Counted from the stretch's first letter, positions 49,282-60,221 are shown. The stretch is DNA of 64,000 nucleotides from Gracilimonas sp. (GCF_022450045.1 NZ_JAKURD010000011.1); one strand, 5' to 3'. The notes: generated from the letters alone by a model not told the origin. Made by a program: numbers and translations.

Positions 49282-50610
<1,329 letters not shown>

Positions 50611-50618
50611 TCAGATGA

Positions 50619-50960
50619 TCAGTCTTCATATGATTTGGCAGCTTCATCCACTGATTTGAAGTGTTTGAATACGGTGATCAATTTAGTGACGATCAGTAAG
50701 CTCTCGATTTTATCGGTTGCGTTGGCAATACGGAGATCTCCGCCGGCTTTGCGCATGGTGGTGAGCCCTCCGATAAGCATTCCAAGTCCTGAGGAGTTCA
50801 TGAATTTCACTTTGCCGAGATCAACCACAACATTGGTTTTACCGGCATCGATAAGTTCATGCAGTTTCTCATTCAGGCTAACCGCATCAGGGCCACCCAT
50901 CACGTTCCCTTTAAATTCGATAACAACGCTGTTGTAGCGTTCTGATGTATTAAAGCTCAT
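50619..50960 (-). CDS. STAS-domain anti-sigma factor antagonist
   Basis: VVVDLGKVKFMNSSGLGMLI with the phospho-serine motif. Confidence 0.9.
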   Translation of the reverse strand: MSFNTSERYNSVVIEFKGNVMGGPDAVSLNEKLHELIDAGKTNVVVDLGKVKFMNSSGLGMLIGGLTTMRKAGGDLRIANATDKIESLLIVTKLITVFKHFKSVDEAAKSYED

Positions 50961-50981
50961 AATAATTCTATTGGTTTAATT

Positions 50982-51893
50982 TTAAGATTTCTTGGTACGC
51001 TCTTCGAGTTCAACCACCAATGCACTAGCTACAAACAGTGAACTGTATGTACCCAAAATGATACCGATCAGGAGTGCAAAAGAAAATCCTTTCAACACCT
51101 CACCGCCGAAAATAAACAGCACAAGTACCACAAACAAGGTGGTAATGGAAGTAATTACTGTACGGCTTAAGGTATCATTCAAGCTTTTGTTTACCATTGG
51201 TATAAAATCCATTCCTTTATGCACATTCGAGTTTTCACGGATGCGGTCATATACAACCACGGTGTCATTCAATGAATAACCCACAATAGTCAGGAATGCG
51301 GCAATCAAAGCCTGATCAATCTGTAAGCTAAATGGTACAAGATCTGCAAGAATGGTGAAGATCCCGAGTACGATCACCACATCGTGAACGAGTGCTGCTA
51401 CCGCCCCGGCCGAAAAAGTCCAGTTTCGGAATCGAATCAGGATATAGATGAAGATAATTACAATGGCATAGATCACCGCTTGTAATGCACCCCATTTGAG
51501 GTCTTCTGCAAAACGAGGCCCGACTACATCAGTTTTAACCATATTTGCGGGGTTGTCAGGGTACAATTCTTCCATATTGGAAGTAATGATATCCTGAACA
51601 ATATTGATTTCGCTTTCATTATCGGTTCGGATGAGAACATCACTGTCCGATCCGTAAAGTTTTATTTCTGGTGCGGCACCGAGGGGCCCGGAAAGAGCAG
51701 AACGCATCTCAACAACATTTACCGGTTCCTGAAATTCCAGAACGAATTCTTTACCGCCTTTAAAGTCGATACCATATTGCAACCCTTGTGTGAGGATCGC
51801 TGTAAGTGACGCCAAAAAAAGAACCGTAGAAAAAATATAGGCTATCTTATGGCTGCCTGTGAAGTTAAAATTAGGTGTTTCAAACCATCTCAT
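50982..51893 (-). CDS. secF: Protein translocase subunit SecF
   Basis: GIDFKGG, VVGP, GYSLNDTVVVYDRIREN and TLSRT motifs. Confidence 0.96.
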   Translation of the reverse strand: MRWFETPNFNFTGSHKIAYIFSTVLFLASLTAILTQGLQYGIDFKGGKEFVLEFQEPVNVVEMRSALSGPLGAAPEIKLYGSDSDVLIRTDNESEINIVQDIITSNMEELYPDNPANMVKTDVVGPRFAEDLKWGALQAVIYAIVIIFIYILIRFRNWTFSAGAVAALVHDVVIVLGIFTILADLVPFSLQIDQALIAAFLTIVGYSLNDTVVVYDRIRENSNVHKGMDFIPMVNKSLNDTLSRTVITSITTLFVVLVLFIFGGEVLKGFSFALLIGIILGTYSSLFVASALVVELEERTKKS

Positions 51894-51932
51894 AATAATA
51901 ATCCTTTAGTCGTTTAAATTTCTTTTTGTTGA

Positions 51933-53738
51933 TCAACCGAAGCTTACAGTACTTTTCTTCGTTTTGGTCAGGTAATCCACCACAACGCGGGTAATTACAA
52001 TAGCACTGAAAAGTGATGCTACGATACCGGCCATAAGTGTCACCGCAAATCCTTTGATCGGACCAACTCCGAAACTGAAAAGGATAATAGCTACAAAGAA
52101 TGTGGTTACGTTCGCATCAACAATTGCGCTCATGGCGTTTGAATATCCTGCTTCAATAGATGCTTTGAGTGTTTTACCGGTGCGTTGCTCTTCCCGGATT
52201 CGGTCAAAGATCAGCACGTTTGCATCTACCGCCATACCAATGGTCAATACAATACCGGCAATACCCGGTAAAGTCAGGGTAGCTTTGAAAGCGGCCAGGA
52301 TACCTAATATAAAAATGATATTAAGCAGAAGCGCCAGATCGGCAATTGCACCACCGGTTCGGTAGTAGATGATCATAAAGATAGCTACAACCCCTAATCC
52401 GAAAAGAATGGAATTCAAACCTGCACGGATAGATTCAGCACCTAAGGTAGCTCCAACAGTTCGTTCTTCAAGAATTTCAAGGGGAGCCGGAAGGGCACCT
52501 GATAAAAGGATGTTCACCAGATCTTCTGCTTCATCAATACCATCTAAACCGGTAATGGATGAACGGCCGTTAGAGATCTTGGTTTGTACGTTAGGATATG
52601 AGAATACAAAACCATCCAGTACTATGGCTACCGGTTTCCCAATATTAGCTCCTGTAATTCGTCCCCACTTACGTGCACCTTCGCTGTTCATGCTCATGGA
52701 TACTTCAGGCACATTGGTGGCGGGATCAAACTGGACGCTTGCAGCTTCAATAACATCACCGGTCAGTTCAACTTGTGTTCTAACCCCGATGAGTTGGTAC
52801 AGATCCTCTCCGGCTTGTCCGGAAAGCGGGTTTGCACTCCACATTACGGTGGTATTTCTTGGCATCATACGCTGAATGTCTTCTGTTTTTAACAGATCCA
52901 TCACACGGGCGGTGTCTCTTGCTGTAGCATATCCCATCAAATAAGGGCTTTGAGCAGGAAGCAATACTTCTTCAAGTGGATTTGAAGTAATCTCCATAGA
53001 ATCAGCTTCTTCGCCCTGGTAGTTTGAATAATACTCATATACCTGATTTACAAATGACCGAAATGTTTCTGCGTCAGCAGCCAGCCGGAATTCGAGCCGG
53101 GCTGTTCCTTTCAAAAGGTTACGAACACGTTCTTTGTCTTCTACACCGGGCAGTTCAACCACAACCCGGTTATTGCCTTGCTTTACAATAGAAGGTTCGG
53201 TTACTCCGTAACGGTCAACACGGGTTCGGATAATTTCGATGGCGCGGTCTAAAGCAGATTGCCGCTGGGTTTTGAGAAAAGTTGCGATCTCCTCATTTGT
53301 AGAGCGACGAGTGATATCCATAGCATCGTTTCTGTAATACCGGCTTAATCGGGCATCAGGGTCACGAGATTCGAATTCTGCCACCATCTCATCAATAAAG
53401 TCAGTGTCTGATTCGATGGAACGCTCACGGGCAGTATTGATCACTTCCCGGAGAAGTTCATCTGCGTTGTCGCCGGCCAATTCCAACACTAATTGCGGAA
53501 TTCCAACTTCAAGTGTTACGTGCATCCCGCCCTGGAGGTCGAGCCCCAACGAGAGGATGTTATCGCGGAGGTATTGAAGCTTTTCGCGATTCTGTTCTTC
53601 ATACTGAGCCGCCTCATCGGGGCTGAGCTCTTCGATATAGTTCTGTTCCAGGTTCCACTGTAGTGTGGGCCACAGGTAATAAATGGTAAGGGCCAAAAAA
53701 GCCACGATCGTACCAATTTTAAATCCGTTTCCTTGCAT
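51933..53738 (-). CDS. secD: Protein translocase subunit SecD
   Basis: LGLDLQGG, RVDRYGVTEP, GALPAPL and GMAVDANVLIFDRIREE motifs. Confidence 0.96.
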   Translation of the reverse strand: MQGNGFKIGTIVAFLALTIYYLWPTLQWNLEQNYIEELSPDEAAQYEEQNREKLQYLRDNILSLGLDLQGGMHVTLEVGIPQLVLELAGDNADELLREVINTARERSIESDTDFIDEMVAEFESRDPDARLSRYYRNDAMDITRRSTNEEIATFLKTQRQSALDRAIEIIRTRVDRYGVTEPSIVKQGNNRVVVELPGVEDKERVRNLLKGTARLEFRLAADAETFRSFVNQVYEYYSNYQGEEADSMEITSNPLEEVLLPAQSPYLMGYATARDTARVMDLLKTEDIQRMMPRNTTVMWSANPLSGQAGEDLYQLIGVRTQVELTGDVIEAASVQFDPATNVPEVSMSMNSEGARKWGRITGANIGKPVAIVLDGFVFSYPNVQTKISNGRSSITGLDGIDEAEDLVNILLSGALPAPLEILEERTVGATLGAESIRAGLNSILFGLGVVAIFMIIYYRTGGAIADLALLLNIIFILGILAAFKATLTLPGIAGIVLTIGMAVDANVLIFDRIREEQRTGKTLKASIEAGYSNAMSAIVDANVTTFFVAIILFSFGVGPIKGFAVTLMAGIVASLFSAIVITRVVVDYLTKTKKSTVSFG

Positions 53739-53876
53739 GGTAATAATGGTTTAGTTTTGAAAAGTTTAAATAAACAGGTTTGGTTGTTGATAACAGTATA
53801 GGCCTTTTTATAGCTTAGCTACTGCTTCAACCTCCTTCTTTCGTTTAAAGTGAAGTTTAAAATAATGAGAGGGAGA

Positions 53877-54431
53877 CTAAGGGGCGTTAATGGCGGTTCC
53901 ACCCGACAGGGGAGAAATATAAAAACCGTGAGAAACTGCGAAAATCTGCTGTCCGGTAACACCGGCATCGGCAAATACCGCACTGTGTTGGGAGTTCAGT
54001 GATTTATGTCCAAAAGAAAACCCATCAACAGGAAGAACCGAGTTAGGTTGTGCCTGTTTAATGATTACGGCCTTACCCATTCCAGTAGATGAATTCTGAT
54101 AATTATTCCACTCCGTCAGCAGAAGCTGGAATACTTCATTCTCATCTTTTGTCTGAGTATCCACCGGGAGTTCAAAATCGTCCGCGTGTGCTTTTACAAG
54201 AGCAGAAGCCTGGCGAATTACAGATTCTAATTTTCCATCTGCATTGGAAAGTCCGCGAATTTGATCGGCAACATTTGTATTGGTGCTTGATTTGAGATTG
54301 GACTGCAGCCAGGCAGCAAAAGCATCATGCTCGGCATTATTGCTGGCCGGCTTCATAAAATAGAAGAGAAGGCCGGCAAGCAGGAAGCCTACATTAAACG
54401 AGCGGGCGATATGTGTCCGAAAGAATTTCAT
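53877..54431 (-). CDS. Leader ORF upstream of secDF; candidate export-monitoring arrest peptide
   Basis: 184 aa, N-terminal hydrophobic segment, ends SPLSGGTAINAP-TAG 138 nt before secD, co-oriented. Confidence 0.7.
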   Translation of the reverse strand: MKFFRTHIARSFNVGFLLAGLLFYFMKPASNNAEHDAFAAWLQSNLKSSTNTNVADQIRGLSNADGKLESVIRQASALVKAHADDFELPVDTQTKDENEVFQLLLTEWNNYQNSSTGMGKAVIIKQAQPNSVLPVDGFSFGHKSLNSQHSAVFADAGVTGQQIFAVSHGFYISPLSGGTAINAP

Positions 54432-54582
54432 TCAGACCCAAAATATAACCAACTCTCAATTCATTGTGAAAGGCTAAATCAGAAAAAACCAATAGCGTCC
54501 TAAACGTTTTTAAAATTGAAAAAAACCTGTGTTTTCGAAGATAAAACGGATTAGTTGACATATTTAAAATCATCCCCTTTTT

Positions 54583-54671
54583 TTCTCGCAGAGGCTCGCC
54601 GATTGACACGCTGAGTTTCGCAGATGATCTTTTATCAAAACGCATCGCTATTCAGCGCAACTCTGCGAGAA
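54583..54671. repeat. 89-bp inverted-repeat element
   Basis: TTCTCGCAGAG ... CTCTGCGAGAA 11-bp perfect terminal IR with inner CGCTGAG/TTCAGCG pairing. Confidence 0.55.
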
Positions 54672-54767
54672 TCCTCTTGAAGGATCGTTTTGCCAAAATG
54701 TATTTCAACATTTAGGACGCTATTGAGAAAAAACTATAGCTTCCAGAAGAGACAGGTCTCAGTCTGA

Positions 54768-57602
54768 TCAACTCATTACATTCAAACGCTCAAATTCTTC
54801 CTGAAGGAATTTGCCGGTATAAGATTTTTTGACTTCAGCAACTTCTTCAGGCGTGCCCGTTGCTATGATCTCACCGCCACCGGCTCCGCCCTCAGGCCCA
54901 AGGTCGATGATCCAGTCGGCAGCCTTGATAAGGTCAAGGTTATGCTCAATCACAATTACCGTGTTTCCTTTGTCAACCAGTCGCTGTATCACATCCACCA
55001 GCATCCGCACATCCTGAAAATGAAGTCCCGTGGTCGGCTCATCCATAACATATAAGGTGTCGCCGGTCCCCACTTTGGAGAGTTCACGGGCAAGCTTGAT
55101 GCGCTGTGCCTCACCGCCGGAAAGGGTAGTGGAAGATTGTCCCAAGGTCAGATATCCCAGGCCTACATCATTAAGGGTTCCCAGAATTCGGCTGATTGCA
55201 GGCTGGGCGTAAAAAAATTCGGCAGCATGGCTGACCGGCATTTTCAATACATCCGAGATATTTTTGCCTTTGTAATAGATTTCGAGTGTTTCACGATTAT
55301 AGCGCTTGCCATTACAGGTTTCGCAGGTCACATATACGTCGGGAAGGAAATTCATTTCGATTTTTCGAACGCCATCTCCCTGACAAGTTTCGCAACGTCC
55401 ACCCTTCACATTAAACGAAAAACGTCCCTGGTCGTAACCCCGAATTTTGGATTCAGGTAATTCCGCAAATAATCGCCGGATGTGATCAAATACTTTCGTG
55501 TAGGTACCGGGATTTGATCGTGGTGTTCGGCCTATAGGACTTTGATCGATGGAGATGATCTTGTCCACATTGTCAATGCCTTCGATGGAATCGTAGGGAA
55601 GAGGAACTGTTTTCGATTTATAAAAGTGATTGGAAAGAATCGGAACCAATGTTTGATTGATGAGCGAGCTTTTTCCGCTGCCACTTACTCCTGTTACCGA
55701 AATAAAACGCCCTAAAGGAATTTCAGCATCCTGGTTTTTGAGATTGTGTCCCCGCGTGTTCTTCAGCTTGATGGATTTCTTTTTTCCATTTCGCCTTTTA
55801 TTGGGGATCGCAACGACTTCTTCATCTGTAAGGAATTTGGCGGTATCGGATTCAGGGTCCAGTTCATCGGGCTTTCCGAAAGTTACAATATGCCCGCCAT
55901 TCACTCCGGCACCTGGGCCCATATCTACCACAAAATCGGCATGTTCTATGGTTTCGCGATCATGTTCTACCACAAGCACGGAGTTCCCAAGATCCCTCAA
56001 TGTTTCAAGCGATTTGATGAGCTTAATGTTATCTCGCTGATGAAGGCCGATGCTTGGTTCATCTAAAATATACAGCACACCCACCAGCTGTGTACCTATC
56101 TGAGTTGCCAGGCGAATACGCTGAGCTTCACCTCCACTCAATGTTTGAGCTTCCCGGTCAAGCGACAGATAAGTCAATCCTACGTTCAGCAGAAAATCGA
56201 GCCGATCCCGGATTTCTTTTAGTACCTGATTTCCGATAGTCTGTTGCCGCTCATTCAGGTTGATGCCATAAAGTGTATCCCGCAGATCCTGAATATCTTT
56301 TTGAACGAGATCGTGGATGTTGAATCCATCGATCTTATAGGAGAGCGCTTCTTTATTAAGTCGCCCGCCCTCACATTCCGGACAAGTTACTTTGTCCATA
56401 AAAGCTTTCGCTTTATCGCGTTGCTTATTGGACTTACTGTTGTGATACTGATCAATAATGGTATTTCTCAGTCCTTCAAACTTATGTTTATAGGTAACGG
56501 AGTTATCCTTGAAATCGTAGCTGACGGAGTATTTTTTATTACCGCTGCCATACATGATGATATCCAGTGCTTCTTCAGGGAAATCTTTGAGCGGAATTTC
56601 AAAATCCAGATCAAAAGAATCTAAAATAGCTTTTAGCTGCTTGAAGACGAAAATATCGCGCGGTGCTCCCAAAAACCGAATTCCGCCATCGGCTATACTT
56701 TGTTCTTTATTTGGAACGAGGAGATCCCAGCTCACATCATAAGTATATCCCAGGCCTTCACACTCTTTGCAATTTCCGTAGGGTGAGTTGAAGGAAAACA
56801 GATTTGGAGCCGGATCTTCATAGGCGATTCCGCTTTCAGGATCAAAAAGGTTTTGCGAATAGAGTTTGTCTGATATCTCATCGCCATCTTTTATGGCAAG
56901 GATCACGTTTCCGTCTGCCATTTCAAGAGCGAGACGGATACTTTCAGCAATTCGTTTTTCACTTTTTTGAGAGATCACAAACCGGTCGACCACAATTTCA
57001 ATATTGTGAGTCTTGTACCGATCCAGTTTCATGTCTTTTTCCAGATCATGAAACTCCCCGTCAATACGGGCACTTACAAATCCCTGCTTTATAGTTTGCT
57101 CAAACAGCTCTCGATAATGTCCTTTACGTCCGCGTACCACCGGCGCCAGACAATAGGCTTTAGTTCCTTGCGGCATGTCCATAACTGAAGCCACAACCTG
57201 ATCGGCTGATTGTTTCTCCATCTTATTTCCCGTTTTGTAGGAATAGGGAACACCGATACGGGCATACAACAGTCTAAGAAAATCATAGATCTCAGTAACG
57301 GTACCGACTGTAGAACGGGGATTCCGGTTGGTCGTTTTTTGATCAATGGAAATAACAGGGGAGAGTCCGTCGATAAAATCCACGGCGGGGCGCTCCATCA
57401 TTCCGAGAAACTGACGGGCATAAGCAGAGAGGGATTCCAAAAATCGGCGCTGGCCTTCAGCGTAGATGGTGTCAAAAGCCAGCGATGATTTTCCCGAACC
57501 GGAAAGTCCGGTTATGACTACGAGCTGATCGCGGGGAATGTCGATATCAATATTTTTGAGGTTGTGTTCGCGGGCGCCTCGTACTACAATGTTATGCTGC
57601 AA
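54768..57602 (-). CDS. uvrA: Excinuclease ABC subunit A
   Basis: GAREHNLKNI, two Walker A motifs (GLSGSGKSS, GVSGSGKSS), zinc-finger CxxC pairs and LSGGEAQRI. Confidence 0.97.
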   Translation of the reverse strand: MQHNIVVRGAREHNLKNIDIDIPRDQLVVITGLSGSGKSSLAFDTIYAEGQRRFLESLSAYARQFLGMMERPAVDFIDGLSPVISIDQKTTNRNPRSTVGTVTEIYDFLRLLYARIGVPYSYKTGNKMEKQSADQVVASVMDMPQGTKAYCLAPVVRGRKGHYRELFEQTIKQGFVSARIDGEFHDLEKDMKLDRYKTHNIEIVVDRFVISQKSEKRIAESIRLALEMADGNVILAIKDGDEISDKLYSQNLFDPESGIAYEDPAPNLFSFNSPYGNCKECEGLGYTYDVSWDLLVPNKEQSIADGGIRFLGAPRDIFVFKQLKAILDSFDLDFEIPLKDFPEEALDIIMYGSGNKKYSVSYDFKDNSVTYKHKFEGLRNTIIDQYHNSKSNKQRDKAKAFMDKVTCPECEGGRLNKEALSYKIDGFNIHDLVQKDIQDLRDTLYGINLNERQQTIGNQVLKEIRDRLDFLLNVGLTYLSLDREAQTLSGGEAQRIRLATQIGTQLVGVLYILDEPSIGLHQRDNIKLIKSLETLRDLGNSVLVVEHDRETIEHADFVVDMGPGAGVNGGHIVTFGKPDELDPESDTAKFLTDEEVVAIPNKRRNGKKKSIKLKNTRGHNLKNQDAEIPLGRFISVTGVSGSGKSSLINQTLVPILSNHFYKSKTVPLPYDSIEGIDNVDKIISIDQSPIGRTPRSNPGTYTKVFDHIRRLFAELPESKIRGYDQGRFSFNVKGGRCETCQGDGVRKIEMNFLPDVYVTCETCNGKRYNRETLEIYYKGKNISDVLKMPVSHAAEFFYAQPAISRILGTLNDVGLGYLTLGQSSTTLSGGEAQRIKLARELSKVGTGDTLYVMDEPTTGLHFQDVRMLVDVIQRLVDKGNTVIVIEHNLDLIKAADWIIDLGPEGGAGGGEIIATGTPEEVAEVKKSYTGKFLQEEFERLNVMS

Positions 57603-59564: not shown

Positions 59565-60221
59565 TTAATTAACGCCAGTTTGAGATAAGAAATAAGGTAA
59601 AAGGATAAAAATGGATGTTTGTGAGCATTTCCCGGGGTCATGCTTTCTGGCCATACTGTTATATTCACGAATGAAAAGCCGGTTTAGAAATAATCCCTCC
59701 TTATCTTCGAAAAGCTCCGGCTTGATGCGCTGCACATAATACATCGGGATCTTACCGGTGTATTGGATATTTACTTCGCAGCGACTTTTACATTCAAAGA
59801 AATTTTTAACGTGCTTATACTTGGTTTTGGAAATATTAATAGAATTTTTTTCGAAGTGCTGTTTAAGCCGGGCAGCAAGGTTTAGGGTCTCTACCCAAAT
59901 ATCATAGGCGAAGCGTTTCTTACCGATCACTCCCACTACGGCTTTTTCGGTGTGAATGCCGCCGCGGATTGGGAGATAGGGGATCTTATTAAGGCGCGAA
60001 TCTTTTTTAATACGTTTGTAAAGCTCAAATCCATTCATGACGGCCATATCCACATCACTTAGAATAAGATCAGGGTATTCAGCCCGTGATAGTTCCAGGG
60101 CATCTTGTCTATTTTGAGCAGTAAGTACTTCGTATCCTTTTTGAATTAATTTCTGCCTTGTAAATGTTGCAGGCGCAAAGTGATCATCCACAACTAAAAG
60201 GCACGGTTTTGTTTTTAACAC
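59565..60221 (-). pseudogene. Internally deleted response regulator-adenylate/guanylate cyclase gene
   Basis: Truncated REC domain (VVDD...DLILSDVDM...KIP) fused in frame to only the C-terminal half of a class III cyclase (IRGGIHT...IGKKRFAYDIW). Confidence 0.75.
59570..59640. mobile_element. Truncated left end of MITE family A
   Basis: TAACGCCAGTTTGAGATAA followed by AAAGGATAAAAATGGAT and CATTTCCCG, matching the 23130 copy. Confidence 0.7.

Follow-up and report, generated by a model that had tools for sequence, protein, structure and literature searches.

A putatively Sec-targeted leader ORF ahead of secDF in Gracilimonas sp. as a candidate arrest peptide of the uDF_NAP-stop type

Arrest peptides are the means by which several bacteria gauge their export capacity, and SecDF drives a late, proton-motive-force-dependent step of protein export. 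The described class closest to the locus presented here emerged from a screen of 30,175 GTDB genomes (Fujiwara et al. 2024, Nat Commun 15:2711; PMC10987492), which considered ORFs of <300 aa without assigned function that are co-oriented with, and immediately upstream of, secDF. This class, uDF_NAP-stop, comprises six clusters with 396 upstream ORFs from 400 genomes, found "mainly in three orders of Bacteroidota" and sharing a C-terminal proline (PMC10987492). Its tested representative, a 125-aa peptide from Echinicola vietnamensis, accumulated as peptidyl-tRNA to 30–50% in the E. coli PURE system and to >50% in the B. subtilis PURE system, i.e. partially. The arrest required the stop codon together with the residues at positions -3 (Asn) and -1 (Pro), was weakened by the N123A mutation and, as judged by toeprinting, occurred with the A site occupied by the stop codon (PMC10987492). 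Decoding of primer KFpr_23 showed that this peptide ends with I-V-A-P-N-A-P-TAA. A C-terminal proline slows termination (Hayes 2002 and Pierson 2016, as cited in PMC7246954). Within the same study, the uA_NSP-stop peptides of Sphingobacteriaceae resemble the Gracilimonas leader ORF described below (hereafter uORF) in their termination-stage arrest, final proline, Asn at -3 and need for the stop codon; they differ in lying upstream of secA, in having Ser at -2, in also requiring Lys at -5 and in their length of about 100 aa (PMC10987492).

SecM of E. coli, encoded upstream of secA, is similar to the uORF in combining a signal peptide with a C-terminal arrest motif that ends in proline, and its release is force-dependent. 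Unlike what is proposed for the uORF, SecM stops the ribosome in mid-elongation at RAG/P, where Pro-tRNA occupies the A site, and regulates secA by unmasking a Shine-Dalgarno (SD) sequence. VemP of Vibrio, encoded upstream of secD2F2, is likewise a Sec-exported monitoring substrate that controls secDF; a long spacer separates its signal from the arrest site, and release is coupled to a late translocation step that is SecDF-related. VemP, too, arrests in elongation and unmasks an SD sequence via a stem-loop, whereas the arrest of the uORF would occur at termination and in an SD-poor organism. For TnaC, the leader peptide of the E. coli tna operon, the paused ribosome blocks Rho. In TnaC arrest, a release factor is inhibited while Pro-tRNA occupies the P site and a stop codon the A site (PMC8450073); as at the uORF locus, a long untranslated spacer precedes the regulated gene. 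TnaC differs from the uORF in having 24 aa, no signal sequence, a need for free tryptophan and a UGA stop read by RF2, whereas the uORF family mostly uses UAG.

The window analysed here is a 64,000-nt stretch of DNA from Gracilimonas sp. (GCF_022450045.1, NZ_JAKURD010000011.1), which itself matches marine metagenomes. A sequence-only reading of this DNA had proposed a secretion-monitoring arrest peptide, pointing to a co-oriented 184-aa ORF 138 nt ahead of secD, with a hydrophobic N-terminal segment and Ala-Pro directly before TAG. The ORF and its placement were confirmed, with all elements on the minus strand, and both terminal features are present in its translation (Table 1). The uORF starts with ATG, and its C-terminal residues SGGTAINAP close with codons AAC GCC CCT (53888..53880), followed by the TAG stop (53879..53877) and by exactly 138 nt of spacer. 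The gene regulated by the uORF is presumed to be secD.

Table 1. Coordinates of the uORF, its parts, the spacer and the neighbouring genes, in window positions.
Feature	Coordinates	Strand	Description
uvrA	57602..54768		upstream of uORF
Leader ORF (uORF)	54431..53877	-	184 aa + TAG; 52 close homologues, 157 cluster representatives; without Pfam/NCBIfam family
Putative targeting signal	54354..54431	-	residues 1–26; K2, R5, R10, then hydrophobic core FNVGFLLAGLLFYFM
Conserved helical domain (predicted)	54087..54344	-	residues 30–115; helices 30–44, 52–61, 68–81, 97–115; pLDDT 91–97
Predicted disordered linker	53913..54086	-	residues 116–173; pLDDT 50–65
Putative arrest motif	53877..53912	-	residues 174–184 PLSGGTAINAP + TAG; Pro-tRNA would be in P site, stop in A site
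uORF-secD spacer	53739..53876	-	138 nt; pyrimidine-rich G-poor start, GAAGGAGG, hairpin, G-poor leader
Predicted spacer hairpin	53782..53835	-	dG -15.6 kcal/mol; ends 43 nt before secD ATG; without U-tract
secD leader	53739..53781	-	A/U/C-rich, almost G-free, no SD
secD	53738..51933	-	601 aa; TIGR01129, E=9e-133
secF	51893..50982	-	303 aa; TIGR00966, E=2e-91
STAS-domain gene	50619-50960		downstream of secF
purA	49282-50556		downstream of secF, beyond STAS-domain gene

Homologues were collected by a word-indexed search, whose 52 hits all came from Gracilimonas or Balneolaceae, and by a full profile scan of 1.8 billion cluster representatives, which yielded 157 matches, 120 of them at E≤1e-10. 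The named members are Gracilimonas spp., Fodinibius sediminis, Cyclonatronaceae and "Bacteroidetes bacterium HLUCCA01". The family therefore extends across the order Balneolales, to which every named member belongs and which is assigned to phylum Bacteroidota, class Rhodothermia, by GTDB and to phylum Balneolota by NCBI. The profile searches of cluster representatives found no relatives outside Balneolales, including in Cytophagales. Scanning of the uORF against Pfam and NCBIfam (E≤1) assigned no family, the only hit being a chance match to DotI (E=0.17). Given the many homologues and a C-terminus that is near-invariant at 24% mean column identity, the uORF is confirmed as a real gene, beyond chance.

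Linkage to sec genes, on which the proposal of an arrest peptide hinged, held throughout: secD and then secF directly follow the uORF in 23/23 Balneolales loci with enough downstream DNA. Across all 21 genome loci with downstream DNA, the distance from the uORF stop to secD is 98–156 nt, with secF next. Six of these loci do not have uvrA directly upstream and nonetheless keep the secDF order, so it is secDF to which the uORF is linked. The same order of uvrA, uORF, secD, secF and STAS-domain gene is seen in two distant members, with profile E of ~1e-11 and 1e-19. The complete arrangement as far as purA, which occupies 49282-57602 in the window, is kept even in distant Balneolales (loci L023 and L025).

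In the intergenic region that separates uvrA from the uORF, the window carries an element of ~236 nt (54490-54725) with 19-nt inverted repeats at both ends (CAATAGCGTCCTAAACGTT, one mismatch) and a nested 20-nt inverted repeat inside (54583-54602 / 54652-54671); it is single-copy within the window. As several related genomes have only ~77 nt at this position, it has the appearance of a MITE-like insertion within the promoter region of the operon. Elsewhere in the window, a 218-aa ORF (59565-60221, minus strand) matches a response-regulator receiver domain only over its first two-thirds (profile positions 2–68 of 111), and this partial receiver is fused directly to the C-terminal half of a nucleotide cyclase domain (positions 87–182 of 183). 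It may represent an internal deletion, a chimera or a pseudogene.

The N-terminus of the uORF has three Lys/Arg within its first 12 residues, followed by a hydrophobic core at residues 12–26 with a 15-residue Kyte-Doolittle maximum of 1.91 (family mean 2.24), and distant family members possess A-x-A cleavage sites of the classical type. This combination indicates N-in/C-out Sec targeting, with residues 1–26 as a putative Sec-type signal that would act as a signal peptide or as an N-in signal anchor. About 158 aa separate its end at residue 26 from residue 184. An AlphaFold2 model built with a 107-sequence alignment (mean pLDDT 78) predicts an N-terminal helix spanning residues 2–25, the four-helix domain of Table 1, which contains the nearly invariant W41, L104 and W108, and a disordered tail across residues 116–184 (pLDDT 50–65). 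No significant match for the helical domain was obtained in a PDB fold search with this model (best E=2.9).

Within the linker, positions 131–171 are near-random, with column entropies of 3.4–3.8 bits. Despite this hypervariable sequence, the distance from W108 to the C-terminus is 73–76 aa in 98/107 members, and the total length of family members is mostly 179–189 aa. As spacer length varies widely among Sec-related arrest peptides in general (PMC10987492), the tight linker length in Balneolales is a distinctive detail. From this fixed length, we infer that the reach of the linker is just sufficient for the exit tunnel plus SecYEG.

The conserved and, in the model, confidently folded domain suggests that the protein may serve a purpose besides arrest. 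Taken further, the uORF could encode an exported or membrane-anchored, YajC-like Sec accessory protein, in which the helical domain does the work and G-x-A-I-x-A-P is the tail of the mature protein, employed in binding or protease recognition. Residues 30–115, predicted with pLDDT >90 and including the conserved W41, L104 and W108, would fit this reading, as would the conserved operon position beside secDF, where small membrane proteins such as YajC are common. The uORF does not match the YajC family model, however, and it has no match to any other Pfam or NCBIfam family or PDB fold. Moreover, a hypervariable linker of fixed length suits a ruler better than a binding tail, and the strongest conservation of the whole protein resides in the last four residues, which abut the stop, C-terminal extensions being almost absent. 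In addition, in vitro stalling has been observed for a peptide that likewise ends in NAP-stop (PMC10987492). We therefore regard an accessory protein as an unlikely explanation of the locus, although this role and that of an arrest peptide are not mutually exclusive.

The C-terminal conservation on which the arrest-peptide reading depends was assessed over 107 diverse members, and the [NG]-A-P-stop ending proved to be kept across the family. The consensus is P-[LMF]-x-x-G-[IT]-[AS]-I-[NGH]-A-P-stop, with I181 and P184 conserved at 100%, A183 at 99%, P174 at 96% and G178 at 88%; outside this motif, only the three helical-domain residues named above form other nearly invariant columns. Proline is the final residue in 137/147 representatives, preceded as G-A-P in 75, N-A-P in 51 and H-A-P in seven, so that position -3 is Gly rather than Asn in about half of the family; at the level of sequence, this conserved Pro-stop is the counterpart of that of TnaC. 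Among 48 ORFs of the window, the uORF alone has Pro as its last residue. Over 22 genomic loci, the final codons include four Pro, four Ala and three Ile codons and all three stops. This use of all synonymous Pro and Ala codons and of every stop implies that what selection maintains is the peptide and the place of the stop rather than an RNA sequence.

The stop codon itself is biased. UAG terminates the uORF in 16/24 family loci versus 19/137 other long ORFs (~14%), an about fourfold enrichment (p=5e-9) that persists after collapsing to about 15 lineages (9/15; p=4e-5). UAG is preferred, not required, all three stops occurring in the family. As UAG is read by RF1 only, the bias may hint at RF1-dependent termination as the inhibited step. 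One family member of 147 aa (P0171) reads ...SGIAINAPPVFAFN and thus runs beyond the usual stop position, which might reflect an error in sequencing, loss of the stop codon or a natural, rare extension.

These features were compared with the published class, and the uORF matches uDF_NAP-stop in motif and context, by which it would belong there under the definition of its authors (PMC10987492). With 184 aa, no Pfam or NCBIfam match and a position 138 nt ahead of secD and secF, it lies within the size and position limits of the class. Its positive n-region, its core at residues 12–26 and the AlphaFold2 helix 2–25 correspond to the N-terminal signal or transmembrane segment; the stretch from signal to C-terminus exceeds the 30-aa spacer of the definition; its proline is last and conserved, the window peptide itself ending in N-A-P; and the phylum is Bacteroidota (GTDB r202). 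The Echinicola peptide is likewise a small co-oriented ORF right upstream of secDF with an N-terminal signal and a spacer of >30 aa, from the same GTDB phylum, and both share A-x-N-A-P-stop (IVAPNAP there, TAINAP in the window). The two differ in length (125 versus 184 aa) and at position -4, which is Pro in Echinicola and Ile in the window. They further differ in that half of the Balneolales family has G-A-P instead, shows no detectable homology to proteins from outside this order, and has a conserved predicted helical domain and a fixed-length linker. As the profile searches found no relatives outside Balneolales, common descent with the Echinicola peptide is no more than possible, and class membership is a matter of motif and context.

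Entries of the published genome list include Gracilimonas tropica (Bacteroidota; Rhodothermia; Balneolales) and Balneola vulgaris, and the script of the authors places RAP/RGP-stop uORFs from Rhodothermales in the same class (PMC10987492). On these grounds, and given the fit to the definition, it is quite likely that Balneolales uORFs are already among the 396 published ones. Stalling at termination, which the sequence-only reading had considered, is the published behaviour of the class, seen in vitro for the Echinicola member (PMC10987492). Hence, this kind of arrest peptide is already published and the Balneolales case is largely known; the four-helix domain, the fixed-length linker, the fourfold UAG enrichment and the SD-free spacer architecture with a hairpin may be new details. 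Overall, the sequence-only reading was borne out in the main, and motif and context make it probable that the uORF is a Sec-targeted leader peptide of the secDF operon and an arrest peptide of the uDF_NAP-stop type.

For the spacer, the earlier reading had singled out a pyrimidine-rich tract after the stop and a second motif further downstream. Both are present, TCTCCCTCTC at 53876..53867, immediately 3' of the stop, and GAAGGAGG at 53838..53831, 92 nt ahead of the secD ATG, but neither is conserved: a comparison of the spacers confined them to the window and its closest relative (L001). TCTCCCTCTC was accordingly rejected as a conserved element, and GAAGGAGG as the SD sequence of secD, owing to its distance, its lack of conservation and the SD-poor genome. 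An SD-like pentamer precedes only 2/47 genes of the window, whose leaders are A-rich and G-poor, and the organism initiates translation largely without SD sequences, like other Bacteroidota.

What the spacers share is an architecture, not a sequence, consisting of a pyrimidine-rich start, a hairpin and a G-free leader of ~40 nt. The first 40 nt after the stop contain 62% pyrimidines versus a background of 50% (p=5e-6) and 11% G versus 18% (p=4e-4). This G-poor, pyrimidine-rich composition is weak evidence for a TnaC-type Rho site that the paused ribosome would cover. No enrichment in C or YC dinucleotides was detected in these 40 nt; a Rho site defined by such enrichment is therefore unsupported, only G-depletion and U-richness being seen. 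The spacers fold better than their dinucleotide shuffles (mean z -2.1, negative in 22/22), and a stable hairpin is predicted to end 33–53 nt before the secD ATG in 23/24 of them, the one reported for L010 lying at 70 nt; only about five of these hairpins bear a U-rich tail. Across 22 loci, G makes up 0–3% of the 40 nt that immediately precede the secD ATG. By eye, a leader motif (TTTTCAAAAC; TTTTCAAA(A)C, at 53745-53765 in the window) recurs ~20–35 nt before the secD ATG in most Gracilimonas spacers, around which the rest of the spacer has diverged (L001–L021). Also by eye, attenuator-style alternative pairing between two spacer hairpins was unconvincing in loci of the L004 type. Neither a sigma-70 promoter nor a canonical intrinsic terminator was predicted inside the spacer of the window, and an Rfam scan of 53500-54900 returned a chance match only (E=0.18). 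No RNA-seq runs containing the region were found, the matching runs being marine metagenomic DNA only.

The spacer data bear on a switch of the SecM/VemP type, which the sequence-only reading had entertained as one route of control. In such a switch, the paused ribosome would melt a stem-loop that hides the ribosome-binding site of secD, with GAAGGAGG as a part of it. This mechanism has been shown for SecM and for uDF_RQH_Enterobacterales, and the minimum-free-energy fold of the window, in which UCUCCCUCU is base-paired with AGAAGGAGG, places this helix directly 3' of the stop, in a position to be opened by a paused ribosome. Both motifs are, however, missing outside the window and L001, and the distance of GAAGGAGG from the ATG, the scarcity of SD-like pentamers and the 0–3% G of the secD leader all speak against it. 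Furthermore, folding of 22 loci predicts that the secD start region is already open, with an unpaired probability of 0.35–0.77, and masking the stretch that a stop-paused ribosome would cover changes this value by -0.15 to +0.18, with no consistent gain. On these predictions, masking of the secD start by RNA structure was rejected as a general mechanism for the 22 loci. The SD- or start-opening stem-loop of SecM, VemP and MifM thus appears to have no equivalent at the uORF locus, and we consider this kind of switch improbable.

Because no SD sequence is present, the secD start is predicted to be open without gain on footprint masking, and the spacers share their architecture, TnaC-like transcription attenuation or Rho occlusion, or else remodelling of the spacer, ranks above SD unmasking. 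It is also conceivable that the Pro-stop merely causes a generic, mild and non-regulatory pause at termination and that the uORF and secDF are simply operon neighbours. The in vitro arrest of the class is partial, one bacterial screen saw no measurable effect of a C-terminal Pro on expression, and no coupling element is conserved in sequence, all of which would agree with such a pause. It would not account for a near-invariant C-terminal motif at such low mean identity, a linker of fixed length, a fourfold enriched UAG at the uORF stop and a strict linkage to secDF; a pause devoid of function would not be maintained like this, which renders the explanation very improbable.

For the favoured reading, a leader peptide that arrests at its stop codon, the following course of events is proposed. 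The N-terminal signal would take the nascent chain to SecYEG in an N-in/C-out orientation. At the stop codon, the last 11 residues (P-L-S-G-G-T-A-I-N-A-P) would occupy the upper exit tunnel and the peptidyl-transferase centre, where, by analogy with Echinicola, they would slow the hydrolysis of peptidyl-tRNA(Pro) by the release factor, so that the ribosome comes to a pause while its A site holds the stop codon. The helical domain would then be 69–76 residues away from the peptidyl-transferase centre, approximately enough to traverse tunnel and translocon, and the fixed linker length suggests that translocation, SecDF-assisted pulling or folding of the domain on the periplasmic face, the site of SecDF action, could pull on the chain and relieve the pause. 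Slow export would thereby prolong the pause and raise secDF expression. This coupling, the weakest step of the proposal, would probably not operate through SD unmasking; as a best guess, the paused ribosome would cover the pyrimidine-rich stretch and disturb the spacer hairpin or hairpins, leading to less premature termination or Rho access in a TnaC-like manner. Alternatively, the spacer could be remodelled so that the unstructured, G-free secD leader becomes more accessible.

More tentatively, the Balneolales version may be a "ruler" sensor, in which a linker fixed in length and free in sequence keeps a conserved four-helix periplasmic domain 73–76 residues away from the site of termination-stage arrest. 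Release of the pause would then report late export, i.e. emergence and folding of the domain beyond SecYEG, with which SecDF assists, and the signal would reach secDF without an SD sequence, via the spacer hairpin and the G-free leader, by attenuation or Rho occlusion, perhaps with a preference for UAG read by RF1. We deem this full scheme possible rather than likely.

As the NAP-stop class is already published, the locus adds little to the catalogue of arrest peptides. The Balneolales family nevertheless provides a natural data set on how pulling force could relieve a pause at a stop codon, through its fixed 73–76-aa linker behind a folded domain, and on how a paused ribosome could activate a downstream gene in the absence of a Shine-Dalgarno sequence, through more than 20 diverged spacers. 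The UAG bias bears on the roles of RF1 versus RF2. Together, the domain, the ruler-like linker, the UAG bias and the SD-free spacer would make termination-stage, secretion-coupled arrest easier to study.
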